DNA of 60,866 nucleotides from Candidatus Moraniibacteriota bacterium (GCA_027031495.1 JALVQA010000020.1:1-60866), one strand, 5' to 3'. Counted from the stretch's first letter, positions 89 through 60,656 are shown. A program made the numbers and translations. Notes: generated from the letters alone by a model not told the origin.

Positions 89-1096
89 ATGACACAACTC
101 ACAGATATTGCGCGGCAGATGGTTGCCTCCGGCAAGGGGATTCTGGCCGCCGACGAGAGTCCGGCAAGCGCCGGCAAGCGCCTGGCCGCCGTCGGGATGG
201 ACAATACGCCGGAGAACCGCCGTGCCTATCGCGACCTTTTCTTGAACGCAGACGGCATTGGGCAGTACCTCTCCGGTGTGATTCTACACGATGAGACGCT
301 GCGCCAGGACGCCCTGGACGGCACACCGTTTCTGACACTGCTTGCCGACAACGGCATCCTGCCGGGCATCAAGGTGGACGAGGGATTGACGCCCTTTCCC
401 GGCTTTGACGGCGAGGAGCTCACGCGCGGACTGGATACACTGCCCGAGCGCTGCGCAGACTATGCCGCGATGGGCGCACGGTTCACCAAGTGGCGCAATG
501 TTATTCACATCGGCGCGGATTTGCCGACGCCGGAGCTTGTGCACACCAATGCTATTACACTCGCACGCTACGCGCGCATCGTCCAAGATGCCGGCATGGT
601 GCCGATGCTGGAGCCGGAGGTGTTGCTCACTGGCGACCACTCACTGTCACGCGCCGAAGAGGTCACGCGCGATGTGCTTGCAACCGTTTTCTACCAGTGC
701 ACGCGCTATCGCGTGGATCTCTCGGCGGTTATTCTGAAAACCAGCATGGTCGTGCCGGGTGATGCGTCCGGCGAGGTGATGGATCACGATGCCGTGGCAC
801 TCTCCACACTACGCGTGCTGCGCGACACTGTGCCACCGGAGGTGCCGGGGGTCGTCTTCCTCTCCGGCGGACAGAGTGCCGAGGACGCCTGCCGCAACCT
901 TGCTGCCATCAACCGCGCGGCTCAAGCAGAAGGCGGCGCGCCGTGGCCGCTGACATTCTCCTTTGCCCGCGCACTGCAAGGACCGGCGCTTGCCGTCTGG
1001 CGCGGCGACGACGAAAAGGTCGCGGAGGGGCGCGAAACCTTCCTCACCACCCTCCGGCGCAACACCGCCGCACTCGCCGGTAAGGACTGCGCATAA
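89..1096 (+). CDS. fba: Fructose-bisphosphate aldolase, class I
   Basis: GILAADES, GIKVD, FTKWR, PMLEPEV, FLSGGQ and TFSFARALQ motifs of class I FBA. ATG at 89 preferred over the track start at 47. Confidence 0.95.
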   Translation: MTQLTDIARQMVASGKGILAADESPASAGKRLAAVGMDNTPENRRAYRDLFLNADGIGQYLSGVILHDETLRQDALDGTPFLTLLADNGILPGIKVDEGLTPFPGFDGEELTRGLDTLPERCADYAAMGARFTKWRNVIHIGADLPTPELVHTNAITLARYARIVQDAGMVPMLEPEVLLTGDHSLSRAEEVTRDVLATVFYQCTRYRVDLSAVILKTSMVVPGDASGEVMDHDAVALSTLRVLRDTVPPEVPGVVFLSGGQSAEDACRNLAAINRAAQAEGGAPWPLTFSFARALQGPALAVWRGDDEKVAEGRETFLTTLRRNTAALAGKDCA

Positions 1097-1122
1097 AGAG
1101 CTCCGCTACTCGTAAGCACAAG

Positions 1123-1155
1123 AAACCCGCTGTACACCTAGAGTACAGCGGGTTT
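1123..1155. terminator. Bidirectional intrinsic terminator between fba and the convergent gene
   Basis: Perfect 13-bp inverted repeat aaacccgctgtac/gtacagcgggttt with a 7-nt loop and A/T tails. Confidence 0.8.
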
Positions 1156-1200
1156 TGAATATGTATCCGTTATCCCTTCAGAAAGCACTTCACCTCTCTT

Positions 1201-2358
1201 CTAATTATCCCGCATGTCACGGTCACGCACCACGCGTGCAAAATCCTCAAAGTGTTCCACGGTGTGTTGCCGGCCCGTCAATGGGTCTGTGTAGTACATT
1301 TTTATGTGCGGCACACCGCTGTCAATAACAAGCTCATAGAACGACTCCGGAAATACGCGACTTTTCTTTGTGCCTGTAAGTGAGTAGTATCGCACACCGT
1401 TCTTCTCCTCATACCGCGCCACCTCCAGGTGTCCGTTGATAAATGCCTCTACATTGTATTGCTCCAGAATCGCGCGCAGCTCCGGCGCATTTGTGACAGA
1501 GCGTTTCGGGCGCGTGCGCGCATCTTCAAATTTCTTGATTTTTTTTCTCAAGGGCGGTGCGCTGTGCAGCACTCGTTGTACGGTCACGTTGTGCTTGCAA
1601 CTGCGCGATAATGCTCTCTACATCTGCCGATGCGCCCTGCGCAACAGCTTTGTCAAACGCTCCCTGGTGCATGATGACATAGGTGCGCTTGTCCGTATCA
1701 AGCACCGCTCGCAACCATGCGAGCGTATCAGGATGAACGTGCCCGGGAATATGTCGCTTGCCACCCGGCACAACCTCCCTCCCATCCGGGTAGTAGTTCG
1801 CATCCACAAACACGAGGCGGTAGTCACCGATGTCAATCACATAGTCAAGCGCCTCAAGGCCCAGCGCGTCTTTAAACTGCGCTTTGGTCACGCTGCGCAA
1901 TTCATGGTTACCAATCGCCCAATACACCGGCACGTTGTTTTTCTCCAGTTCTGCACGCACAAGGCGCAGCCCCCACATACCGACGTAGTCCTCGTCATTC
2001 GTTCCTTCAATCACGTCTCCAACATGGATGATGATTTCCGGCGAAATGCCCGCATGTTCTCATGAAACAACGCCAACGGGTGCGCGTCCTTGCTTGAACC
2101 CAGATAGCGCTCCGCTTCCGGGCGCTTGTCAGCACGCACGACGCGATTGGGGTGCACCTGCGTATCGGTGATAACCCCGATCTTCAGCACCTGCTGTGTT
2201 GACACCTTGCGCTCGTACAGTGGGATAAATGTTGTTGTTGGAAACCAATCCCATTTGTGTACATATGCAGGTGTATCGTATGTCACCCAGTATTTGTGCA
2301 CATAAAATATGCCGACACTACATAGAATAACGATGCAAATACTTATAAACTTTTTCAT
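1201..2358 (-). pseudogene. Calcineurin-like metallophosphoesterase with N-terminal membrane anchor, split by two frameshifts (or assembly errors); ~385 aa when joined
   Basis: Motifs ITDTQVH (2011-2358), VGDVIE/GNHE/MHQ (1526-2014) and NGHLE (1201-1587) fall in order across three track ORFs. Frames join by +1 at ~2044-2046 and -1 at the T8 run 1539-1546. Confidence 0.8.
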
Positions 2359-2412: not shown

Positions 2413-4254
2413 CTACAAGAGTTCTTGAATACGTTTAATAATTTTCTTTTGACGCGCAGCATTTCCCGAAGACTCCGCTTCACTCAATGTAGCGATCAGG
2501 CGTGCACGCTCTTCTTTTGTCCACAATGCAATCATACGTGCACACATGTCTTCAACTTCTTTTGCAAGAGCCTCCGCATCAGATGTTATTATGATACCCG
2601 TTGTCGCCGCACGATGTGAACGAAGCACTTTTTCAAGCACGTGGCGCGTACTCTCATCATCCACCACAGAGAGAACTTGCGCAAAAGAGGTCGCACCATC
2701 CATATATGCCATAATAAGAGCATGGAGCGCCTTCTTTTGTTCTAAGAGCGGGAGAGGAAAACTGTATGACGCGAGCACTCTCAATGCGTCATCTGATTGC
2801 GCAGCAAGCGAGAGAAGATTGTCCAACAAAATGTCACTTTGAGCAACTTCCACGTTCTGATTAGTGCCACTCTCTTGTTGTATGGTTGCCTCACGCTGAA
2901 TATCGCCTCCATAATCACGTTCTGCCTGCAATCGTTCTAATTCTTCCGTAACTGTCGCGGGAGAAGTTTGTGTACGCTGCGCAAGTTGCTCCACCCAATA
3001 CTCCTTGTCAACGTGTGATGCATGTGCATTGATAAGCGGTGCTATTGTGCGAATAACAGCGTGCCTACCATCCGGCGTTGCCACATTGTGTGTAGCAAGA
3101 GCGCGGTCAAGAAAAAACGCCACAGCATCACGTGAATGCTTTATAAGTTCGGTAAGATGCGCCGGATTATTCAACGCAATATCAGCAGCATCTTTTGCCA
3201 TTTCCCCATCAGTCATAACAACTCTTACACGTAAGCCAACGGAAACGCAAAGTGCCGTACTTTTAAACGCCGCTTTGCGACCGGCATCATCATTATCAAA
3301 AAAGAGAATAACTTGTGGCGCATAGCGACGTATGATGCGCGCATGATTCTCTGTAAGAGCAGTACCGCTCACAGCAACTGTCTCACGAATGCCGGCTTGA
3401 TGCATTGCAATAACATCAAGGTTGCCCTCAACAACCACTGTGCGACCCGTATCTTTCATTGCCTGTTTTGCATGTGCAATACCGTAAAGAATAGCGCTCT
3501 TGTGATAAACAGGTGACTCTGTTGTATTGATGTACTTTGCCTGTTTTCTGCCATCTTTATCATTTTCATCGTCTGGCAAAATTCGCGCAGAAAATCCGAC
3601 AACACGTCCAAGAGGATCAGTAATCGGAAACATGATACGACCACGAAAACGGTCATAGTAATCGTTAATACTATCACCATGCGTACCGTCTTTTTGAATA
3701 ATAAGACCAGCTGCAGCAATGTCAGCAAGTGTGTATTTGCGTCCATGTAAAAAATCGCGAATATGGTGCCAACCGTGTGGCGCAAAGCCAAGGCGAAACT
3801 CAGCAATTGACATCTCACTGATGCCGCGATCCGTAAGATAGGGACGCGCTTTGTGTCTACCGATGCCGTCTACAAGTTGTTTCTGGTAAAACTTTGTCGC
3901 AAGCTCAAGGATATCGTAAAGAAGTTTTTTTTGATCTATTGATGTGTTAGCATTTGCATCAGTATGCTGGCGCGTAAGCTCTACGCCGGCACGCTCTGCA
4001 AGCGCAACAAGAGCATCACGAAATGTCATACCCTCTTGTTCCATGACAAAACTAAACACATCACCACCCTTACCGCACCCAAAACAATGCCACAGTTGTC
4101 GCTCCTCGGACACCGTAAACGACGGCGTGCGCTCCTTGTGAAACGGGCACAGCCCCTTCCACTGCCCCGCGCCGGCACGCTCAAGCCGGACGTAGTCCCC
4201 CACCACATCCACAAGATTGAGCCGCGATTTTACTTCTTCTACATCATTGTTCAT
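2413..4254 (-). CDS. dnaG: DNA primase
   Basis: CPFH..E.TPSF...CFGC zinc finger, DRFRGRIMFPI, KYINT, TOPRIM EG.LD and FDND.AG motifs. Confidence 0.97.
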   Translation of the reverse strand: MNNDVEEVKSRLNLVDVVGDYVRLERAGAGQWKGLCPFHKERTPSFTVSEERQLWHCFGCGKGGDVFSFVMEQEGMTFRDALVALAERAGVELTRQHTDANANTSIDQKKLLYDILELATKFYQKQLVDGIGRHKARPYLTDRGISEMSIAEFRLGFAPHGWHHIRDFLHGRKYTLADIAAAGLIIQKDGTHGDSINDYYDRFRGRIMFPITDPLGRVVGFSARILPDDENDKDGRKQAKYINTTESPVYHKSAILYGIAHAKQAMKDTGRTVVVEGNLDVIAMHQAGIRETVAVSGTALTENHARIIRRYAPQVILFFDNDDAGRKAAFKSTALCVSVGLRVRVVMTDGEMAKDAADIALNNPAHLTELIKHSRDAVAFFLDRALATHNVATPDGRHAVIRTIAPLINAHASHVDKEYWVEQLAQRTQTSPATVTEELERLQAERDYGGDIQREATIQQESGTNQNVEVAQSDILLDNLLSLAAQSDDALRVLASYSFPLPLLEQKKALHALIMAYMDGATSFAQVLSVVDDESTRHVLEKVLRSHRAATTGIIITSDAEALAKEVEDMCARMIALWTKEERARLIATLSEAESSGNAARQKKIIKRIQELL

Positions 4255-4297
4255 ACTTCCATACTAGCGCATGAAGGCACAAGCACGCAACAGAACA

Positions 4298-4322
4298 AAA
4301 ACCCTCCGGGGAAGAGGGTTTT
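4298..4322. terminator. Hairpin/intrinsic terminator at the left island boundary
   Basis: aaaaccctc-cggggaa-gagggtttt, perfect 9-bp stem. Confidence 0.65.
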
Positions 4323-4325
4323 ATG

Positions 4326-4430
4326 TCGCAATTACTGAACGTCGCTCGAACTTTCTTTGAGCAATAATCTGCGTCCTGGCGGGTGCAGAACCTGTCCAGT
4401 GGCAGCATCCGCCTTGCGGTGAGCAAAGCA
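4326..4430 (+). repeat. 105-bp repeat, copy A (inverted relative to 14079-14183)
   Basis: Hand alignment with the reverse complement of 14079-14183: 85/105 identical, no gaps. Confidence 0.9.
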
Positions 4431-4725
4431 TCCTGATACCCTCGTCATAGAGTACTAAATTACAAAGAGTGAAGCTACGATAACCATGTCATCGTAGCAA
4501 CTTTCACGAAATCGTCTAGCGATCTGACGAGCGTCATCAAAAGATCGAGATCCTGCTCCACAATATAGTGTCTTGGTCGGACACTTCCCGAAGCATTTTA
4601 ATTTGCCTTTGGTGCGATGCGCCGAGACATCCAGAGTATTTTCTTGTCATTAGAAAACCATCCTTTCAGTTAATTTGGTGTTGCATGACTCAGAGAGCAC
4701 GAAGAACTTTGCCTGAAATCTGTCA

Positions 4726-4749
4726 AAAAGTCAAACGTTTTTGACTTTT
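4726..4749 (-). terminator. Probable terminator of the island operon
   Basis: aaaagtcaaa-cgtt-tttgactttt, 10-bp stem 9 nt after the stop at 4758. Confidence 0.6.
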
Positions 4750-4757
4750 CATAACGC

Positions 4758-5231
4758 TTACGTCATTTTATTCTCAATTTTATACTTTGTTACCTTTGAT
4801 GCATTTGGATGCGACTTAACAGCGTTTAACACCTCCGGCTCACTCGTCAATTTTACTAAACGGTCTAATACATCGCTTGGAGTGTTCGGATTATGGGCAA
4901 TAATCATACGTATATAATCCGATGCTCCCTCCAATGCTCGACGCATTGAATTTTCGGGCACATTTGGATTACAAAATGCAAGCACTCTGACATTAAAATT
5001 TTCGTCCATTGAAAGAATATTGAGAATAAATGGATCATTGCCTTCTGCAGCTTCTTTGCGTCTTTTTTCAAGCGGCCATTTTGCCACTTCGCGCTTTTTT
5101 TCTTCGAGTCCCTGGTCAATTTCAGTGCACATAGAATCAATATCTGCAAATATATCTTCAACATCAGGCAAGTCCTCAACTTCAGCGACGAGATTGTCTA
5201 TGTTGTCAAATTGTAATTCCAGATTTTTCAT
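4758..5231 (-). CDS. Hypothetical protein with LRV/HEAT-like helical repeats
   Basis: Repeated motifs AFCNPNVP, AHNPNTPSDVLDRL and KSHPNAS resemble leucine-rich-variant repeats. Starts 5 nt after the VWA gene stop. Confidence 0.7.
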   Translation of the reverse strand: MKNLELQFDNIDNLVAEVEDLPDVEDIFADIDSMCTEIDQGLEEKKREVAKWPLEKRRKEAAEGNDPFILNILSMDENFNVRVLAFCNPNVPENSMRRALEGASDYIRMIIAHNPNTPSDVLDRLVKLTSEPEVLNAVKSHPNASKVTKYKIENKMT

Positions 5232-5236
5232 AGTAT

Positions 5237-8200
5237 TTAATCAAATGTTTGTTCTATTAAATCTTCCAACTTTTGTGTAAATTTTCTCGATAGCATTGTT
5301 GGATCTTGTACTTTAAGCGAATTTTTGCCAAACTCTTTTTCAATAGTCTTCGCAGCTTGCGCTAAACCAATTCCTATAATCACTGCGTCTCGCTTATACT
5401 TTTGTATAAGATCATGTAGTGAATCCGAGCTACGCGCCAAACCATCTGTAATAAAAAAGGTAAAATTATAGGAACGATTAAATTTATCAGCGAATTTCAT
5501 TTGACTTTTTTGCGTCGCCCGTAACAGCTTAGTATCTTGCTGGTTCCGAACGGTGGGCCTAAGTAAAACTATCTTTTGTAAATCATCACCATATGCATCC
5601 TGGTCGAATTGCTTCAAAAACATGCAACCGCCTTCGGCATAGATGACGATTTCCAACGGTATTTTCAATTTTTTAGCTGTCTCAATTAAAGCTACGGCCA
5701 ACTTTTTTTCTTCTTCAATCATTCCACCTACCGAACCAGTATTATCGATAATCAACGACCACACGAATTGTGGCTTTTCAGGCGGACGTTTTCGCTCAAA
5801 AGACTCGGGTCGAATGACAGGTTTACGACCTTTCATGCCAATTACATTTCTCTGCCATCCACGTTCCAGTCTCGCTCCGCGTCGTTGATGTTTTGCGTAT
5901 GCATAATCCTTATCAAGTTCAAATTTATCAACGAAAAAATTAACAAGGTCGCCAATCAATTCTTTCTCTTCCTCCATGTATTTAATGTATAAGCGAAGAG
6001 CTCTGCCATCCAATCCTGACATCTCTTTATACATTGTTTCCATTCTTTTCTGATGCTGTGTTTTCAACTGCTCAAGTAATTGCAATTCTTTCTGTTGCGC
6101 CCTCGTTTCTTGCTCTGACAATTCTTCTCTCACTCTTCGCTCTTCTTCGCTGGTCACCTGTTTCATGATAAGATTTCCATCTTCATCGTGATCCAGGAAT
6201 TTGCTTTCAATGGAGTTTTCAAAAACGCTTAATTCATCCAAAAGTTTTGAATCTGGACACTTAAACACAACATCTGCACCTTCAGTGGTGTTACCAGCTC
6301 CGCCTTGATGTTGAAAGTCAAAATACTCCGCCAATCCACTAACGCCATTTTTTTCAAAACCCTCTCCGTCGGCCCGTCCGCCAGACAATTTTTCATTTAA
6401 TCTTTCTTCCATGCCTTCTAACATCTCTGACAATTCTCCCATAATATTGGAAAGTTCTCCAGACATGTCTTGTGGATTCGTACTAAATCCCAGCGCTTCT
6501 TGCATTTGTTGCAGTTCACCAATCATCTGCCGCATCGCTTTTTGTTCATCCTGCCTACCACTTTGTTCCATTGCTTGCTCCAAGTTTTGCTGCATCTGAT
6601 TTAGAAACTCTTGCATCTCTTGTGCGGACGGTATACCCTCGCTACCGCCTTCCGCGCCAGCCTGTCTTGCACTCACCTCGCCTGGTTCTTCAAAGCCTTC
6701 AGCTCCTTCTGCTGTCACATCTTCTCCTACACCCCCGCCCTGATCTCCGCTTTCAGCGGAGTCACCGTTCTTCACATCAGGTTCTTGATTCCTCTCGTCT
6801 TCTTCAGTTTTCTCACGATATTCCTGCGTTGACACCGGAATCTCAAAATCCATCGCCTCCCACAAATAGTAATATTTTTTATAATCATGCTGACCAAATT
6901 CGTTGAGACGTTGTAGATAAAGACCATGCATTATGGCATGGTCAACTGCACTCCAAATGACCGGCATACTTCGACGATAAAACTCGCCCCACTCAATCTC
7001 GCCTTTTTTGACAGGAATCGATTTTCCGCCATTTCCCCCTCTATACCAAAACCTTCCAAATGGTTTAGGTAAATTAAAGTTCACCAAAAAATCGCCAGTA
7101 GAGAGTCTCTCAATATAATTCTTTATTTCTTTTTAAAAAATCCTCACCGGCTTGCTTGCCATAAATAGAAAAAACAGGCAAATCGTAACCCCTTTCCTTG
7201 ATTTTTGAAATGATCTTGTCGGTAAAATTGGGATTTTTCTGTTGATAAGCATGCGCATGACACTACGATATACTTTACTCGTTTCCTGCGCAAAATGGCG
7301 TATTTTTTCTAGAATCTCCTTTTGTTCTTCCGTAAGCTTAGACTCATCAATACCATACTCTTTGATATTGTATATTATCGGCTCTTCTTCAAGATCCACT
7401 TCTTTTTCTGGCTCAGAAATATATTCGGCAATATCTTTAATTTGCTCAGCCTGTTGCTGCAAGGTTTCAAGCTGTTCGCTCAATACTCGGTCCTCTTTTA
7501 CCGCCTCTTGCAGATCTTTTATTTGCTCACGAAGCTGCTCGGCTTGCTCTGCAAACCTTTCCATTGCCTGCAGCTTTGGCATTTGTGGAGCAGGTTCTTT
7601 TCCAGCCTGTTCCTGCACTTTTTGAAACTGCTCTTGTATGCTTTGTAAATTATCGGCAAGTACTTGCTTGAATAAATTTTGCGCTTGCTCATACTCCTTT
7701 TGTTCAGCCGGACTTAATTCTTGACTTGGTAATTTTGAACGCCACTCACCTGCCTGTTTTTTTCCTATCCCCTCTTTCTTCTCCACGCCGTTTATATGCT
7801 TCGCGTAACTTCTCTCTCATTTCTTCGACTTGCCGGTGCATATTTTCTATTGCAGACAAGCCAGCAAACTCAGCACTATTTAGCTGTTTTGACTGTTTCA
7901 CTTCAGCCTTTGCTTCAGAAATTCCAGCAGACATAGCAAGTTGCGAAAACTTTGGCCATAAATGTTCGCGAATAAGATGAATTTGTTTTTGCGGCGTCGC
8001 CATTTTTATGGCTTGGTCAATTACTGATTTTGTCCGCGCATCAAAAAGATCTCGCACTTCAGCGCGAGCATTTGCAAGACCTTGTTTAAAATGTTCTTCG
8101 GGTATTATTCCGATCTGTGAAAGTGAATAGAGGAGAGTGAGCGTAACAGCTTGCTTATAGGGCGAGGCGTCTTTTACTTGTTCTGCCATGGCCGCGGTAT

Positions 8201-8693
8201 CAATTTCTTCCTGATACAACGCCTTAAAATTTTCTTCCGGGTATGCAGAATAAGCGTTCCGCATTTCAAAATAGTTAGCAGAAGCTTCATGTATTGCTTG
8301 GACAAGTGATGTAACCAATGTTGGTGTAATACTGCGCTCTTTACACCACTCACGCAGATCGTTCAACTCTTCTTCAATAGGATAATTAAGATTGCCGATT
8401 TCATGACGCAAACGAGCATTGACCAACTTCTGATCTTTTACAAGATAGTCGCGAGGATAGATAATTACATCCAGTACATTCTTAGCAGGATTTTCAGGAC
8501 TTGTCGCCACACCCCAATCTGACCCTGCAATAGCACGAATACGCACTTTACCTGCAAGACCTTTTCGTTCCAATTTGCGCACTAAGCCATGCGCCAGCAT
8601 GGGAATGATTTCATTTAGCTCTTGCTCGCGTCTTTCTATATCTACCGGTAGCGTTTCAGTGGGTGGTGAAATGTATTCTTTTCCCTCTCGCAT
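5237..8693 (-). CDS. Large VWA-domain protein (CobT/MoxR-partner type), ~1151 aa when three frameshifts are repaired
   Basis: C-terminal MIDAS (IIDNTGS ... FFITDG), N-terminal HEIGN segment, Q/E-rich coiled coils and a G/E/D-rich linker. Track ORFs 7746-8693, 7133-7786 and 5237-7087 join at T runs 7757-7763, ~7234-7246 and 7130-7134. Confidence 0.8.
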
Positions 8694-8704
8694 AACATAA
8701 TAAA

Positions 8705-10619
8705 TTATCTAATGCCTTCCGCTAAAATCATCATTATAGCATCACGATCGCTTTTGCCACGGCGATAGGTTTCAGTATGTGGCATATAGGTAACAGCAAC
8801 TGCGTATTGTGCGGCATTCCATCCGGGTTGATAGTCCGGCATCTTGGAAAGGTTGGCTTCCCAAAGTTTATTTTCTGAGTAAAACCGTGCCGCCTCAATA
8901 GAGCCGCGAAGCGAAATGTCCCGCTCCATTCGCAAATCACCGGCGCGCGTTTTATACGCTTTTACCACTTGGCGCGTACGATCCGCAATTGCTATGATGT
9001 TTTTCAAGTCCTTGATGGCTTTTATTTGTTCTGGATCAAGTGAAATGTACGCACCACGGCCGTTCACTACATAATCCCACGCTTTTTGAAAGTCTTGATC
9101 TGACAAATTAACTAAAGGATGAATGTACTCTTTCAAGATCAGTGCCTCATCAATAGTAAATCGCTCTTGGTTAGTCTCTGGATCAATTTCTCTGAACGGC
9201 GGATAGTCCAAAGTCATGATATTAGAACGGTCATCAATGGTTTCTGGCAAATCTTCCACGCCGTCGTATTCTGCCGGATTCATTAACGCGACAAAAACTG
9301 TGCCAGGAGCTGCTTTAATCACTTGATCGTTGAGAAAAATCGTCCGATCGCCGTCAGAGAGAGCGTTGAAAAATTTCGCCACCTCTGGCCGCAAAAGATT
9401 AACTTCATCCAATTCCAACACAGCGTTCGGTGTAGTAACAGCAGAAAGAATTCGGGTTGGAATTCTCACGACTTCGCCATCCTGTAATTCCACATCATAG
9501 GTCAGGTCGCGTTCTTCTTTATCTGGCGAGCACGCATAGCGGTACAGCGGGCGGTTCGTTTCAGCACAATAAAAGTCCACTAGTTTATTTTTTCCAGCGC
9601 CACGAGGACCAACAATAACGGTCATACCCTTGGCTGAAAGATGTTCCCACTCCGGCGCCTGCTTATTTTTTACAAGTTCTTCCAAGTACGCATTATTGCC
9701 TAGACCAAGCTGGCGATTAACTAATTGGGCAAACCAGGCAAATTTTTTCTCAAAAAACGGCGTAAGTTTAAAACGTGAATCGTGAGGCGGGATAAATTCT
9801 GCGAGGTTATCATCAAGCGAACGCAAAAAATTCTGAGTGCGAAGAATGTCTGCGGCACGCTCGACAAAATCATCCATATCTTCCAATGCAAATCTTTCTA
9901 AACCAACAACTTCTTTTATCCCACTAGGATCTGTAAACTTGGCGATTCTGTCGGCAAGTTTTCTTGCTTTAGTGTCATAATTCGAATCATCAGGATTGAG
10001 CCCTTCGTATTCTTGTTCAAGTTCAGCTAATCGTTTGCGGATCTCATTAAATGCGCGCACCTCTTGACGTCCCTCTAAAACGGTATCAATAGACTCAAGT
10101 CGTGTCCCACGATATTTTTCAGAAAATGTTAGCAGCTCTCCTGGCTTTGCAACAAGCGTTAATCCATTGGCATCTTTGAGAAAACGCACATCAGCAAATT
10201 TTTTTCCGCCAGAAACAAATACTTTGCCGGGAACAGCATTCCATTTTCTTGTTTCTGTGGGAGTTTCGCACACTGGAATATGCGTGCCACCAACTGTGAT
10301 ATAGCACCCTTCTTGCATTGCTGATGTGGAATTTTTTTCTTTTTCTTGTTCTGGTGTCGGTTCTATTGTTTTTATCTCCCCTCGCACTGCTTCTTGCTCC
10401 AATCGGTCTAGTTCTTCTAGTGAATCCTCTAATGCAGCAATTATCTCGTCACGAGACTTACCCTCCCCACTTCTCCATGTATCAGGCAAAAGCCGCGCTT
10501 TTTCCAAGGCACTTAACACTTTTTTCTCGCTTTTTTTCTATTACCTCCTGCGATACCGGTTCTTCTTTAGAAGTAACCCGATCGCGTTCAGGCCTTGGTT
10601 CTGGCATTTGTTCCCTCAT
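8705..10619 (-). CDS. MoxR/CobS-type AAA+ ATPase with long N-terminal extension, ~637 aa
   Basis: Walker A GPRGAGKN, Walker B LELDE, sensor-1 ALMNP, arginine finger IDDR. Probable true start ATG 10619, joined to track ORF 8705-10519 by removing one base from the run at 10520-10525. Confidence 0.88.
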
Positions 10620-10629
10620 AGTTATAAAT

Positions 10630-10989
10630 TTAATTATCAACCTTCTCTATTGCACGCTTTAATTTAATAAGTAAGTCATGTACAATTTTTGGGGCTTGTT
10701 CAGGGTAGTAAATAGTAAGCGTGCTTTTCTCTGACACAATGCGTGTGTGCCCTTGAAAACCAGGCACACCAAAAAGCCAGCGACCGACTGTATTGACGGC
10801 TATTTTTTTACCTTTCGCATCAACTCCTTCGGCTTTACAACTTATTTCTTCATTATACTGTGATAAACCTCTAGCTTTTTCGCGAACAAATACGCGCGCT
10901 GTTACGCCAAGCGGTTTTGGTGCTTGAATCACAATCTTTGCATGAAGCGGGATAAGTCTTTCTGGAAAGCTTTGCTTTTTTGTAGTCAT
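10630..10989 (-). CDS. Hypothetical protein (119 aa) in the island operon
   Basis: Intact ORF with 23-nt and 10-nt gaps to co-oriented neighbours; no recognisable motif. Confidence 0.75.
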   Translation of the reverse strand: MTTKKQSFPERLIPLHAKIVIQAPKPLGVTARVFVREKARGLSQYNEEISCKAEGVDAKGKKIAVNTVGRWLFGVPGFQGHTRIVSEKSTLTIYYPEQAPKIVHDLLIKLKRAIEKVDN

Positions 10990-11012
10990 AGTATTTGAAT
11001 CAAATTTAAAAA

Positions 11013-13717
11013 TTACCTTTGCGCCACGAGATGTGAGACGAGGAATGGGTATCTAGTTATTTCTTCAATGGTGAAGCCCGCATCCAATGTTTTCAGTACT
11101 ATCTCAACATTATTACTGCGCTTGGCAATAGTCATGATCATTTCCAGTGTATCGAATTGATGCAAACCACGGCGATCTATCTCGTACTTTACATTGAGTG
11201 CATTTTGCAAGGGTATTTCTTTTTCGACTATGCGTAGCAGATTATTTATACCAAATTTTTTAGCGGCAATTTCGATAACTCTACCCGCAGTCCATCTTTG
11301 TGTAACTTTACTCCAACGCACAATATCGCTGACCGAATTTTCAAGATCAAGTTCCGTAAGTGCCTTGTGAATATCAAGAGCTTTTAAGATAGGAATATCT
11401 TCGTCATTTATTTGCTCAAGCTCTTCAGGAGAGAAAGTGTTAAGAGCGTCTGATAATTGATGCCATTCTTCATACCTAGCGAGCCTCTGCGTCCATGCAA
11501 GTGAGTTTGCAAATGAAGCATCTTGATTTTTGGCCACAAGGGCAGAGCGAACGACTTTGTAGTGTTCATATTGCTGGCCAGCATTATAAAGTTGTTCTAC
11601 TTGTTTAAACGGGAGACTATGGAGTGCAAAAATAAAATCATCCACATTCTCAACACCTTTGGCTATAGTTGCAATCTGATCAATCGACAACTTGTGACCA
11701 TGTGCTTTTGTGTTGTCTCGTATGGCAATTGCCATTGGCAAAGATACGTCGCGACTTAACAAGTTTCTTGTTTCTGCAAGACCAAAGGTACTAAGGGCAT
11801 CGTCCAGCCCTGCTATGTCGTGAGAGGCAATCTCGGCAATGACAGTATTGTCCAGATCATATCCTTGTTTTTTCGTAGCTTTTCTTGCTGCGGCCACGGA
11901 GCGTAAATATAAATCTTGGTCCATGAACCACTTAACATCGTCAAGCGAATATTCGCGCAACACGTCTGTCATTCCGCGGAAATCTTTCTCTGCCAACTCT
12001 TCAACCTCCTGCAAGGAAATTTCGTAGTTGGACAGGGAAACAATGTTGCCAACTTTCATCATTCTTTCCAGTTTCTCTTGCGCTTCCCAATCTTGATCCC
12101 GCGCTTCCTGCGCTAGTTTATGTACTACTCCGAGATCATCTCGCGTTGCTCCTCGCTTTCCAGCAATAATATCAGCAAGGGCATATTCAACAATTTGTTC
12201 ATCAGACATACCAAGTCGCATCATTTTATGCGACCTTTTGATTGTTCCGAACGGCGCATAGTTTATCCAATCAACAATTCCATCGAGTGGCTCACTGTCG
12301 TGATCTCCACCGCGATGATTGATTTGGAAATGCAAATCCAATGCTTTCTGCGCCAAGTTTTTGTGCTTTTCATATCGCTCCTTAACGACTTCTTGACGCT
12401 CTTTAAGATCGGAGAGTAGCTGTTCAACGGTTCTGTTCTGAAAATAATCTAACTTTTGCCGGTATTCTGCTTCCAGGTTAGCAATCTGCGTATCAAAACG
12501 TTGCTTGAGACTGGTAAGCCGGAACTCTCGCTCTTCGTCTGACAAATCTTTTTGTTCAATTTGTTTTTGCGCTTTTTCAAATTTCTGTTCAAGACGCTCT
12601 TTCTCGTGCGCAAACCAATTTACCTGCCACTTTTGCATAAAGTCATTCTCTCGCTCAAGTAAATCTTGTCTTTCATGTTCATCGCCTTCTGTTAATATTT
12701 TTAACATTCCATATAAGCGTCTTCTTTCTTTTTCGTATTTATTCGGTCCTGATTTTCCAATAAAACGTTCAATGTTTCGTAGGTTGACACCACTTATTTT
12801 CCGTCGCATTCCGCGGAGTTGATCTTTTATATGTTCGTCACCAAGACGCGCCCACGCAACAGCTTCTTCAATACCGGAAGCATACGGAGAATGAGGAGTG
12901 CGTCCGGGATCATTGTAATCCATTGCTTCTGTAAGCCACTCTGAAGCAAGCAAGACGGCCCTATGTTCAAGGTGTTCTTCTCCTGCCTGTTTTTCTTCTT
13001 TTGTTGCACGTTGTTCAATAAATTTCCGCGCTTCACCGTATAATTTACGCAAAAATGGATATCCGTATCCAATACTTCCATTAGGTCCGGGTTCGATGCC
13101 AGAATGGTACCCTTTCAAGAGCACCATATGCTCGGTGCTTAAATCTTCATCCTTGCATTTTCTTTTTGCGATTTTATACACACCCATTTCCGGTGTTCCG
13201 ATCATGGACGCAAAAAGTATATCTCGAAATAAGCCGCTACGAATTGTTTCTGGTGTCACATTACTTGCGTCAATCGGCTTCTCTTTTGTTACTTCCACAT
13301 ATTCGCCCCTTTGTTGGCTCCATTCTTCTGTTGTATATCGGCGGACAGCTTTACCCTGAATCAGTTTTTGATAAAAATTGAGCCGATCAACTAGATACTT
13401 TTTGCACCTTCGGTGTGAGCAGCTTCATTGAGAGCCTGTATGGCCTCCACTACATTCATCCGGCGCAAAAGCTCCAAGCGCTCAATGTCGTCTTTAGTAT
13501 TTTTGAAATTCTCTATCTTTTCCTTATCAATGCTGATTTTTTCACATCCAAGGTAGGAAACTAGCCTCTCAAAACGAGTAGCTCCCAGCCACTCCACATG
13601 ACCTTCAACTTCGATAGCTTTGCACCGCTCGCTTGAAGATTTATTACCCTCATCATTGCATTCCTGCATAATATGCTCTCGTGAGTTCATTGATTGTTCA
13701 AATCTTCTTTTGCTCAT
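11013..13717 (-). CDS. Large hypothetical protein (~901 aa) with coiled-coil centre and C-terminal ~55-aa helical repeats
   Basis: Track ORFs 13391-13717 and 11013-13298 become one open frame (…GAKKYLVDRLNFYQKLIQGK…EYVEVTKE…) if one base is added to the run at 13399-13403. Confidence 0.75.
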
Positions 13718-13747
13718 ATGCTCATAATGTTCATTATTTTCTTATCC

Positions 13748-13965
13748 TTATTTTAGCGAAAAGAGAGTAAAAGGCAACTCTTTGTTCTTTGTTTTATTAA
13801 ATCATCAACGCCAACATTCAACGTATTTGCGATTTTTCGCAAAGTATCAATGATTGGGTTGTCATGTGTGCCAGTTTCAATATTAAAAATGGTATTATTT
13901 GAAACATCCACCAACCAAGCCAGCTTTTTTGCAAACGTTTTACAGTTTTCGCCAGCGCTTCTTTA
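13748..13965 (-). pseudogene. Decayed XRE-family (HTH_3) transcriptional regulator
   Basis: Minus-strand translation gives EALAKTVKRL, then a frame change, then KLAWLVDVSNNTIFNIETGTHDNPIIDTLRKIANTLNVGVDDLIK. This is a typical Cro/C1 HTH lacking the usual GLSQ segment and a start codon. Confidence 0.7.
13750..13777 (-). promoter_or_regulatory. Candidate sigma70 promoter of the island operon
   Basis: TTGCCT-16 nt-TAAAAT ending ~32 nt upstream of ATG 13717. Confidence 0.45.
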
Positions 13966-14078
13966 AAAAACAATGAAATTCCACCGAAAAATCGGTCGAA
14001 GCCAGAAAGTAAACAGGCAAAAAGAAAGAAAAATTAAAAAAGAAAGAGATGTGCCAAAAAAATGAATGGAAAATTTTC

Positions 14079-14183
14079 TGCTTTGCTCGCCGTAAGGCGG
14101 ACGTCGTCGCTGGATGGGTTTTGCACCTGTCAGGGCGCGGATTGTCGCTCAAAGAGAATTCGAGCAGCGTTCAGTAATTGCGA
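14079..14183 (-). repeat. 105-bp repeat, copy B (inverted relative to 4326-4430)
   Basis: Hand alignment as for copy A; lies ~105 nt from the 3' end of tRNA-Pro. Confidence 0.9.
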
Positions 14184-14288
14184 TTATACGATACTTTCAG
14201 AGTTTTTGGGCGAGTCTGTTTACTCATTCGCCGCGCCATCGATGCGGAGCGAGCATCCTTCTCATCTCAAAAATCAAAAAATCCATTA

Positions 14289-14364
14289 TGGTCGGAGCAT
14301 CGGGATTCGAACCCGATCTAAATGGTCCCAAACCATTCGTGCTAGCCGTTGACACTATGCTCCG
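14289..14364 (-). tRNA. tRNA-Pro(TGG)
   Basis: CGGAGCA/TGCTCCG acceptor stem, anticodon loop ttTGGga, GGTTCGAATCC T-arm, encoded CCA. Confidence 0.95.
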
Positions 14365-14438: not shown

Positions 14439-14720
14439 TTATTTTACAGCATCTTTAAGAGCTTTACCAGCCGTAAACTTCGGCACGGTCATTGCAGGAA
14501 TGTTGATCTTCTCACCCGTCTTAGGATTTACACCCTGACGTGCTGCACGTGCAGATGTCTTAAATGCACCAAAGCCAGTGATTGTCACTTTATTGCCGCT
14601 TTGAAGTTGTGTTGTTACAACATCAACAAATGCATCAACTGCTGCCTCAGCGTCTTTTTTGGAAAGACCTGTTTTTTCTGCAATTGCTGCAACAAGGTCC
14701 GCTTTTGTTACATTTTTCAT
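14439..14720 (-). CDS. hup: DNA-binding protein HU
   Basis: TKADLV…ITGFGAF…ARQGVNPKTGEKINIPA.TVPKFTAGKALKDAV. Start trimmed to MKNVTK. Confidence 0.95.
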   Translation of the reverse strand: MKNVTKADLVAAIAEKTGLSKKDAEAAVDAFVDVVTTQLQSGNKVTITGFGAFKTSARAARQGVNPKTGEKINIPAMTVPKFTAGKALKDAVK

Positions 14721-14876
14721 AATGTCACAATCCTCTCTAGTTATTATTTTATTTATATCCCCTACAGAGTATAGTCTATACGTTTTTTGCTTTATATGCA
14801 AGTGTTTATGTACTTATATCAGTATATTTTCTATCATACACACAAAAAGCACTGCACACCACAACTCAAAGCTCAT

Positions 14877-25283: not shown

Positions 25284-25290
25284 CTTCTTG

Positions 25291-25362
25291 CTCCGCGGAT
25301 AGGATTCGAACCTATGACCAATTGGTTAACAGCCAACTGCTCTACCACTGAGCTACCGCGGA
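25291..25362 (-). tRNA. tRNA-Asn(GTT)
   Basis: TCCGCGG acceptor stem, anticodon loop ctGTTaa, GGTTCGAATCC; CCA not encoded. Confidence 0.95.
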
Positions 25363-57105: not shown

Positions 57106-57470
57106 GTGATGTGGCGCACCGATAAGCCGGATTCTGTTTTGTCTTACGACAACGACAACCATTTCCCTTGGCATACTGTTACCAGTATGCTCATGCGACT
57201 CTCCCTATGCATCGTATAGGGCACGGTCTTGCACTCGTGTAAGGATTTAGCCGTTTCACCCCTCTTGTTGCCAAGAGGACTAATCCTCAAAAGAGGATTG
57301 CGCACTGTCACCAGTGCCACCGTCTCTGTTCGCACCTCGTGCCTTACGACAGACGGGCGTTACCCGCTACACAGCTCTGTGTCTGAACGTACAGACACAG
57401 GAGTGTCCGGACTTTCCTCCATGACGTTACAAAGTAACGTACACAGCGGTTGTCTGGTGCACCACATCAC
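57106..57470 (-). ncRNA. rnpB: RNase P RNA
   Basis: Minus strand GAGGAAAGTCCGG near the 5' end, CAGAATCCGGCTTA near the 3' end, and a 15-bp P1 stem (57106-57120 with 57456-57470). Confidence 0.95.
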
Positions 57471-60427: not shown

Positions 60428-60584
60428 ACACTATACATATGCAACACACCCACAAAATTATAGCACATGCAAAGATATCAATACCATTAACGCGCTACAA
60501 TTCATGGGAAAATTTTGATAGCCATAATGTTTTGGAAACCTGGTGAATGGTCAAAGCGTAATGATCCTTGTTTTAGGTTAATTG

Positions 60585-60656
60585 TAGCCCGTAGGGGAAT
60601 CGAACCCCTGTTACCAGGATGAAAACCTGGCGTCCTAACCACTAGACGAACGGGCC
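60585..60656 (-). tRNA. tRNA-Glu(TTC)
   Basis: GGCCCGT/ACGGGCT acceptor stem, loop ttTTCat, GGTTCGATTCC; CCA not encoded. Confidence 0.95.

Follow-up and report, generated by a model that had tools for sequence, protein, structure and literature searches.

An inverted repeat that differs by transitions only at a tRNA-Pro island of Candidatus Moraniibacteriota: probable leftover attachment-site arms of a lost serine recombinase

The described systems closest to the locus reported here are the elements and prophages that carry a serine integrase, such as phiC31, Bxb1, A118 and SPbeta (SprA). The locus is an inverted repeat whose two arms bracket an island beside a tRNA-Pro gene, within a stretch of 60,866 nucleotides from a Candidatus Moraniibacteriota bacterium (GCA_027031495.1 JALVQA010000020.1:1-60866; this whole stretch is hereafter called the window). 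Like these systems, the relatives of the island encode a large serine recombinase (LSR), made of Resolvase, Recombinase and Zn_ribbon_recom domains, beside the site; they are found at one specific chromosomal site, and their junctions share a short core (CGAC or CGACCA) with no long direct repeats. Unlike them, the family keeps a second, complete and inverted attP inside, with the cargo bracketed by inverted P arms, and its arms are 100–330 nt long with conserved hairpins, against minimal sites of about 50 bp; moreover, the copy in the window is without any recombinase. We consider that the two arms are probably leftover attP arms of a tRNA-Pro island that a since-lost serine recombinase had inserted, and that the transition-only differences between them probably reflect neutral decay without mismatch repair. 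On this reading the repeat would mark out a very widespread family of islands, driven by a serine recombinase and placed at tRNA-Pro, in the ultra-small bacteria of the Candidate Phyla Radiation (CPR).

Other described systems share some of these traits. In classical tRNA islands, direct repeats of the tRNA 3' end lie at the flanks, whereas here the conspicuous repeat is inverted and not tRNA-derived. The ssrA islands of Dehalococcoides, with the serine integrase DsiB, reportedly have the 3' end of a small RNA gene as target, and tRNA or tmRNA islands of this kind are said to supply a new 3' end (the CCA is encoded here) and to carry accessory or defence-like cargo. Repetitive extragenic palindromes and bacterial interspersed mosaic elements (REP/BIME), REPINs and miniature inverted-repeat transposable elements (MITEs) are likewise intergenic GC-rich hairpin modules that occur in mosaic combinations and break assemblies; in contrast to them, the present repeat has two copies per genome, is tied to one tRNA gene and a serine recombinase, and shows neither a RAYT or transposase partner nor a target-site duplication. 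Integron attC sites are also structured recombination sites bounding gene cassettes, often with defence genes, but the ends of the present arms lack the R''/R' cores (RYYYAAC and GTTRRRY) and there is no IntI tyrosine recombinase and no cassette array. An attC identity was indeed rejected on the ends themselves, since TGCTTTGCTC lacks complementarity to CGTTCAGTAATTGCGA and GTTCAGT has a C where the core needs R.

The arms, at 4326–4430 (arm A) and 14079–14183 (arm B), were found by a repeat search to be 105 nt long, 81% complementary and separated by 9648 nt, and form the longest inverted repeat within 3–16 kb. When 4326–4430 was compared with the reverse complement of 14079–14183, 85 of the 105 positions were identical in an ungapped alignment and all 20 differences were transitions, with the first 16 nt (outer end) and the last 10 nt (inner end) identical between the arms. 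This recount agrees with the initial annotation, made from the sequence without database searches, both for the absence of transversions and for the conservation of the two ends. The edges of the arms are sharp, with no alignment of the flanks at either side, and whole-genome BLAST (1.0-Mb genome, 98% complete) retrieved the second arm with E=8e-23 and exactly two copies. The features of the locus are as follows.

2413–4254, minus strand: dnaG (primase; Pfam Zn_ribbon_DnaG, DNAG_N, Toprim and DnaB_bind), a host gene on the far (B') side of the insertion.
4298–4322, minus strand: intrinsic terminator directly outside arm A, a 10-bp stem (AAAACCCTCTTCCCCGGAGGGTTTT) and then a T-rich tail.
4326–4430, plus strand: arm A, the head TCGCAATTACTGAACG and hairpins H1–H3, cut at 105 nt; taken to be the P arm in an attR-type junction.
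4431–4645, no strand given: conserved non-coding sequence that ends the cargo cassette and adjoins arm A on its inner side.
4758–13717, minus strand: cargo operon of eight genes, without a recombinase (ORF, i.e. open reading frame, calls).
14027–14078, minus strand: extension of arm B, with family homology past the inverted repeat; aligns with the family member L077 past GCAAAGCA (GAAAATTTTCCATTCATTTTTTTGGC..TTAATTTTTC).
14079–14183, minus strand: arm B, the head and hairpins H1–H3; taken to be the P arm in an internal, inverted attP.
14184–14288, minus strand: spacer, read from a local alignment to the family member L054 as the decayed remnant of a mirrored P' arm.
14289–14364, minus strand: tRNA-Pro (UGG), the putative integration target (ARAGORN, Rfam); ends with ..CTCCGACCA, CCA encoded.
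14439–14801, minus strand: gene for an HU-type DNA-binding protein (Pfam Bac_DNA_binding), host flank.

The comparison with genomes lacking the element points to an insertion. In the same-genus genome G003, a 503-aa ORF, a 107-aa ORF, tRNA-Pro, 107 nt and dnaG follow each other with no element; the two ORFs match the window flank in size and order. In a further genome (G002) one extra gene lies between tRNA-Pro and dnaG. In the window the same interval measures about 10 kb and holds both arms and a cassette of 9.5 kb and eight genes. As the gap between tRNA-Pro and dnaG is only 107 nt in G003, the segment 4255–14288, including both arms, is an insertion at the 3' end of tRNA-Pro. The initial annotation had described the repeat as bracketing an island and had considered it as a recombination site or as a non-autonomous mobile end capturing cargo at tRNA-Pro; the inserted island, the position beside tRNA-Pro and the link with recombination are all borne out, the end being non-autonomous in its present state.

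The junctions are in line with this (a slash marks the joint). The empty site of G003 and G002 reads ..CCGAC/AG, the tRNA-Pro there ending with ..CTCCGACAG, unlike that of the window, which reads ..CCGAC/CA with the CCA now encoded. The outer edge of arm A reads ..GCGAC/AT (..AATTGCGAC/AT.. against the host flank), and the attP junction of the family reads ..GCGAC/CAATC. These junctions fit hybrid attachment (att) sites with a short core, although attL is deleted here and the empty site comes from a distant genome. They also fit a crossover within or beside the common CGAC; we infer that it took place there and that the invariant 16-mer of the head is a half-site of the LSR.

To define the family, the exact pattern TCGYAATTACTGAACGNNGNNCGAA was scanned in one genome per species, the loci being labelled with L-numbers. 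It was found on at least 118 contigs, mostly of Patescibacteria (CPR), in reply to the question, raised by the initial annotation, of whether the repeat recurs in this and other CPR genomes. Every copy of the family shows the invariant head TCGCAATTACTGAACG, then the hairpin H1 and then variable GC-rich hairpin modules. No more than two copies per genome were present in the 8 genomes checked. The first ~45 nt of the arm also occur in further families of the order, beside RmuC, GmrSD and AAA_15 genes. Among the matches listed, to which the counts of the following paragraphs also refer, many lie 30–75 nt from a contig end, as expected because repeats break short-read assemblies. The head lacks the fold of a tRNA 3' half and has only CGACCA in common with the end of tRNA-Pro, and a tRNA-derived element was thus rejected. 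No account of these tRNA-Pro islands with a serine recombinase was found in a search of the literature. Complete heads, together with matching hairpin modules, were also seen in metagenome-assembled genomes labelled outside Patescibacteria, namely as Pacearchaeota (L104) and, in several others, as Gammaproteobacteria, WOR-3, Planctomycetota, Elusimicrobia and Ignavibacteria; these could be due to horizontal spread or to mis-binned or mislabelled contigs.

In the relatives, the head is associated with tRNA-Pro and with an LSR. A tRNA-Pro gene (any anticodon) was found in about 37 of 118 loci and is the commonest tRNA there, so that the position at tRNA island edges suspected in the initial annotation was recovered outside the window. 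In 10 loci tRNA-Pro lies 37–74 nt upstream of the head and co-oriented with it; tRNA-Pro is likewise upstream and co-oriented at arm B in the window, with a gap of 105 nt. An additional head, in L072 (at 1951, minus strand), is placed about 100 nt downstream of a tRNA-Leu(taa) (2053–2142, minus strand), and the family target is therefore not strictly tRNA-Pro. An LSR with the Resolvase, Recombinase and Zn_ribbon_recom domains is encoded in 13 loci, and it is the only recurrent recombinase after clustering of all neighbouring ORFs.

Three of these loci (L054, L148 and L130) have the LSR gene placed between tRNA-Pro and the head; it is encoded on the opposite strand and extends over the tRNA. 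In L054, for instance, the LSR ORF (376–2052, plus strand) overlaps tRNA-Pro (1897–1972, minus strand), and the other two loci are arranged likewise. The 3' end of the LSR gene is therefore inside the attachment-site repeat of these intact relatives. Indeed, an inverted repeat around the LSR begins at the tRNA end, with CGACCA followed by ATCTAAAC.. (also ..CGACCA/ATCTAAACATTGCGAAT..), and its mirror is found just ahead of the head, as ..GTTTAGAT followed by TGGTCG (also ..ATTCGCAATGTTTAGAT/TGGTCG). In L163 two pairs of inverted repeats abut each other, one of 193 nt at 99% identity around the LSR and the other of 47+112 nt around the cargo. When the 121 heads with sufficient upstream sequence were compared, 31 showed a conserved P'-like flank upstream (chance rate 0.15%) and 90 diverse host DNA. 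Where two heads occur in L074, L127 and L145, the head proximal to the tRNA or the LSR belongs to the P'-flanked class and the distal one to the class with diverse flanks. The heads point outward in all pairs seen (window, L038, L074, L127 and L145), and the cargo between them is unrelated from locus to locus, including for example AdoMet synthetase, GluRS and peptidases.

The window shows the same hallmarks: a head 16-mer with a hairpin arm, an outward inverted pair, and a P'-like flank on the copy that adjoins tRNA-Pro. This flank is the spacer at 14184–14288, which aligns over its full length with the ~110 nt upstream of the L054 head, with a score of 59 against 17.5 ± 3.4 in 500 shuffles (about 12 standard deviations); it is read as the decayed remnant of the mirrored P' arm. 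A collapsed palindrome was also tried as an explanation of the spacer and rejected, its self-complementarity being 24 against 24 ± 6 in shuffles, while it aligns with one arm of the repeat of the relatives instead. The flank of arm A does not align with the P'-like flank. Arm B is thus read as the internal inverted attP, because the decayed other half of attP remains upstream of it, and arm A as attR, because it abuts host DNA. Homology of arm B to the family continues for ~50 nt beyond the 105-nt repeat, to about 14027, while arm A ends at 4430, exactly where the conserved non-coding tail of the cassette starts. No recombinase domain was found in the eight island proteins with Pfam, PADLOC and NCBIfam, and tblastn of three family LSRs against the 98%-complete genome gave only matches of ~20 aa, several of them at short repeats matching a tRNA gene. 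With no LSR in the genome, the island is therefore considered stranded.

According to the explanation we favour, the arms would be duplicates of the P arm of attP from an island family that is driven by an LSR and targets tRNA-Pro. An intact island would consist of tRNA-Pro, a P' arm, the LSR gene on the opposite strand, a mirrored P' arm and the core, followed by a P arm running from head to tail (with which the internal inverted attP is completed), the cargo, a second P arm running from tail to head (attR) and the host flank. The presence of an internal inverted attP and of the distal P arm of attR would explain why the cargo is always bracketed by outward inverted heads, and the same layout why the cargo is unrelated between loci. 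In the window, the LSR module would have been deleted, leaving 105 nt of the mirrored P' arm (14184–14288) between tRNA-Pro and arm B, the latter being the internal attP, with arm A as the attR-type junction ahead of dnaG and the island immobile for want of its recombinase. LSR loss seems to be common in the family, as judged from the 10 other loci in which the tRNA lies almost directly against the head, and the junction of L145 resembles a microhomology deletion. The window would then represent a common end state of the family, in which the recombinase is lost and a defence-like cassette still lies between inverted attachment-site arms. Both arms would initially have been near-identical and about 60% GC, each then taking about 10 substitutions, all of them transitions and mostly GC>AT, as a result of a raw, transition-dominated mutation spectrum in a lineage without MutS, MutL and NucS and not of structural protection.

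The polarity of the substitutions is consistent with this history. Compared with L077, the nearest family member, arm A shows 14 differences and arm B 16, all of them transitions; each arm is nearer to L077 than to the other arm, and L077 therefore approximates their ancestor. With polarity set by means of five outgroups, the 20 differences resolve into 10 changes per arm, 15 of them GC>AT and 5 AT>GC, from an ancestor with 60% GC. Such a pattern is that of foreign, GC-rich DNA decaying in clock-like fashion within a genome of 44.5% GC. Strand-biased deamination was considered and is not established (11 C>T against 4 G>A on the plus strand, p=0.12). In both arms C>T changes outnumber G>A changes on the plus strand, without reaching significance, and because of this each arm folds better as plus-strand nucleic acid, whatever the orientation of the element; the excess may be an effect of strand-biased mutation.

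As for the source of the bias, no MutS_V, MutL (DNA_mis_repair) or NucS domain was found in the 98%-complete genome, the control genomes being positive, while UDG is present; MutS is also absent in 59 of the 61 genomes of the order that were sampled (at least 90% complete). In mismatch-repair-defective Escherichia coli, transition rates are 75- to 200-fold above those of all other substitutions (10.1101/346874). Non-coding repeat pairs elsewhere in the genome have ratios of transitions to transversions of 20:1, 13:1 and 9:1. The first of these is formed by C3:10482-10704 and C14:10072-10295, and the second by C10:25634-25841 and C10:22985-23192; neither pair has a long ORF over both copies. 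We infer that the lack of mismatch repair makes the spectrum near-purely transitional, and the arms, taken with the absence of MutS, MutL and NucS and the loss of MutS across the order, suggest that the neutral DNA of these bacteria changes almost only by transitions. The arms would thus amount to a small natural mutation-accumulation experiment. A spectrum of almost pure transitions matters for dating and for the evolution of codon usage and GC content, and it cautions against deducing RNA structure in these genomes from a "transitions only" pattern.

Several observations weigh against this explanation. Mismatch-repair-defective E. coli is biased towards AT>GC, while 15 of the 20 changes here are GC>AT. 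Pooled intragenomic repeats (78–97% identity) show a fraction of transitions of only 0.63–0.72, for which 20 out of 20 has a probability of 1e-3 to 1e-4, although the pooled set takes in coding paralogues and old or exchanged copies. Over the heads of the family the ratio of transitions to transversions is 110:83, so that the mutational account holds only if selection, saturation and the exchange of variants have inflated these backgrounds. With regard to the recombination part, L038 has two arms (204–462 and a mirrored copy with its end at 2595) that share 211 nt at 100% identity, and this identity takes in 48 nt outside the head (a terminator-like hairpin), which a simple attP/attR scheme does not predict. 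The nearest empty-site genome is distant, its DnaG being 49% identical; neither a recombinase nor an excised form was seen here, and the att assignment is based on comparison with rather remote relatives. Half-sites of the studied serine integrases measure about 25 bp, and the arms, at 105 nt or more and up to ~200–330 nt in relatives, are far longer.

The arms also carry hairpins. At the family level, H2 has compensatory changes at 4 of its 9 pairs, with 94.7% of cells paired against 28–53% in slid controls, and covariation, proposed as a check in the initial annotation, is therefore present in one hairpin; the compensatory changes represent essentially one switch between two subfamilies. In H1 a G-U pair is conserved in 16 of 18 sequences and favours one transcribed orientation. 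The length of the arms and the compensatory changes make a role beyond recombinase binding probable, the candidates being accessory binding, termination or an RNA. A more far-reaching, and rather unlikely, version is that the hairpin arms and the inverted attP inside the island have a function in a mode of serine integration not yet described, providing either a factor-free control of directionality or an in-trans remobilisation or swapping of recombinase-less cassettes by an incoming sister island. If this were true, the conserved hairpins, as RNA or cruciform DNA, would be accessory sites, and the island of the window a dormant, exchangeable cassette and not a fossil.

A different explanation, favoured in the initial annotation, is that the arms are structured RNA or folded single-stranded DNA genes or cis-elements, and that purifying selection sparing G-C, A-U and G-U pairs lets only transitions through. 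The prediction of H1–H3, the H2 and H1 conservation just described and the fold energy of both arms (−26 to −35 kcal/mol) speak for structure in the family. The substitutions themselves do not follow it: 13 of the 20 lie outside the predicted stems, where tolerance of wobble pairs is irrelevant, and of the 7 within stems, 3 are compatible with wobble pairing in one orientation and 4 in the other; no compensatory pair change is seen between the two arms. In arm B, moreover, 3 of the 9 H2 pairs are broken in the orientation favoured by the conserved G-U pair of the family. Transversions are common across the same region of the family, as the ratio of 110:83 indicates, and the other arm pairs show 2:2, 6:3 and 4:4. 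Thus the hairpins are conserved in the family and eroding in the window copies. The GNRA-type loop (GCAA/GUAA, on one strand) that had been noted in both arms is not conserved in the family, which has mostly TGAC/GTCA or other loops there. Rfam 15 at the gathering threshold gave no family over either arm in a scan of the whole window, and a sensitive E-value scan of 4200–4800, covering arm A only, returned at best terminator look-alikes with E≥0.34. We therefore regard selection on a fold as an unlikely cause of the 20 transitions; the extreme mutation bias that the same annotation had offered as its alternative is the better account, a lineage-wide lack of mismatch repair plausibly explaining 20 out of 20.

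A protein-coding origin of the arms was rejected as well, since the differences modulo 3 have no periodicity (hand count) and the 14-codon ORF is not conserved. This ORF, MSQLLNVARTFFEQ up to its stop codon in arm A, is fortuitous, because TGG, in place of ATG, precedes most family heads and the 16-mer shows no variation at any of the three codon positions. The terminator hairpin that had been reported next to it is real, and lies on the minus strand (4322 to 4298); it is predicted to end transcription leaving the island ahead of dnaG, which it insulates.

Quite improbable, in our opinion, is that the arms are the terminal inverted repeats of a non-autonomous, MITE-like or composite transposon with its transposase elsewhere, the eight-gene cassette having been captured by chance. 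The outward heads of each pair, the variation of the cargo between pairs and the frequent breaking of contigs at the element would all suit such a transposon. On the contrary, no convincing target-site duplication was seen when the flanks were inspected by eye, no transposase recurs among the neighbours listed, where the LSR is the sole recurrent recombinase, only two copies are present per genome, and one arm is nearly always tied to tRNA-Pro, with a conserved second half-site adjoining it. A transposon with its own transposase was rejected because the cargo between the arm pairs is different at every locus.

An active invertible switch, with the 9.6-kb segment flipped by a site-specific recombinase or by RecA acting on the inverted arms, is highly improbable: the segment is indeed flanked by inverted repeats, and in relatives the head is found downstream of tRNA-Pro in either orientation, but arms that are 81% identical with longest identical runs of 16 and 10 nt are ill suited to homologous recombination, neither the island nor the genome has a recombinase, and the eight genes are co-directional with a terminator suited to the present orientation.

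Between its probable attachment-site arms, the island carries eight genes (4758–13717), all on the minus strand, whose products measure, in order of increasing coordinate, 157, 616, 217, 315, 604 (AAA_5 ATPase), 119, 761 and 108 aa. The same eight genes are syntenic in 20 metagenome contigs, with 42–70% amino-acid identity, and none of these contigs has a head within 2 mismatches; the cassette was thus rejected as a hallmark of the mobile family and is regarded as captured cargo. Searches of the eight proteins with Pfam, PADLOC and NCBIfam recognised AAA_5 alone, with no PADLOC or NCBIfam family, and a sequence search of the PDB found no relatives for the 761-aa and 616-aa proteins. The cassette is a candidate ATPase-based system, possibly one of defence. 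In L166, L168 and L178, the sequence lying downstream of the p157 homologue matches the stretch 4421–4645 at ~70% identity over 229 nt; this stretch may hold a small RNA of the cassette, or one of its small ORFs that escaped annotation.

Ordinary features elsewhere in the window include an RNase P RNA of class A (57107–57465, minus strand, 122.8 bits), a tRNA-Asn (25290–25362) and a tRNA-Glu (60584–60656).

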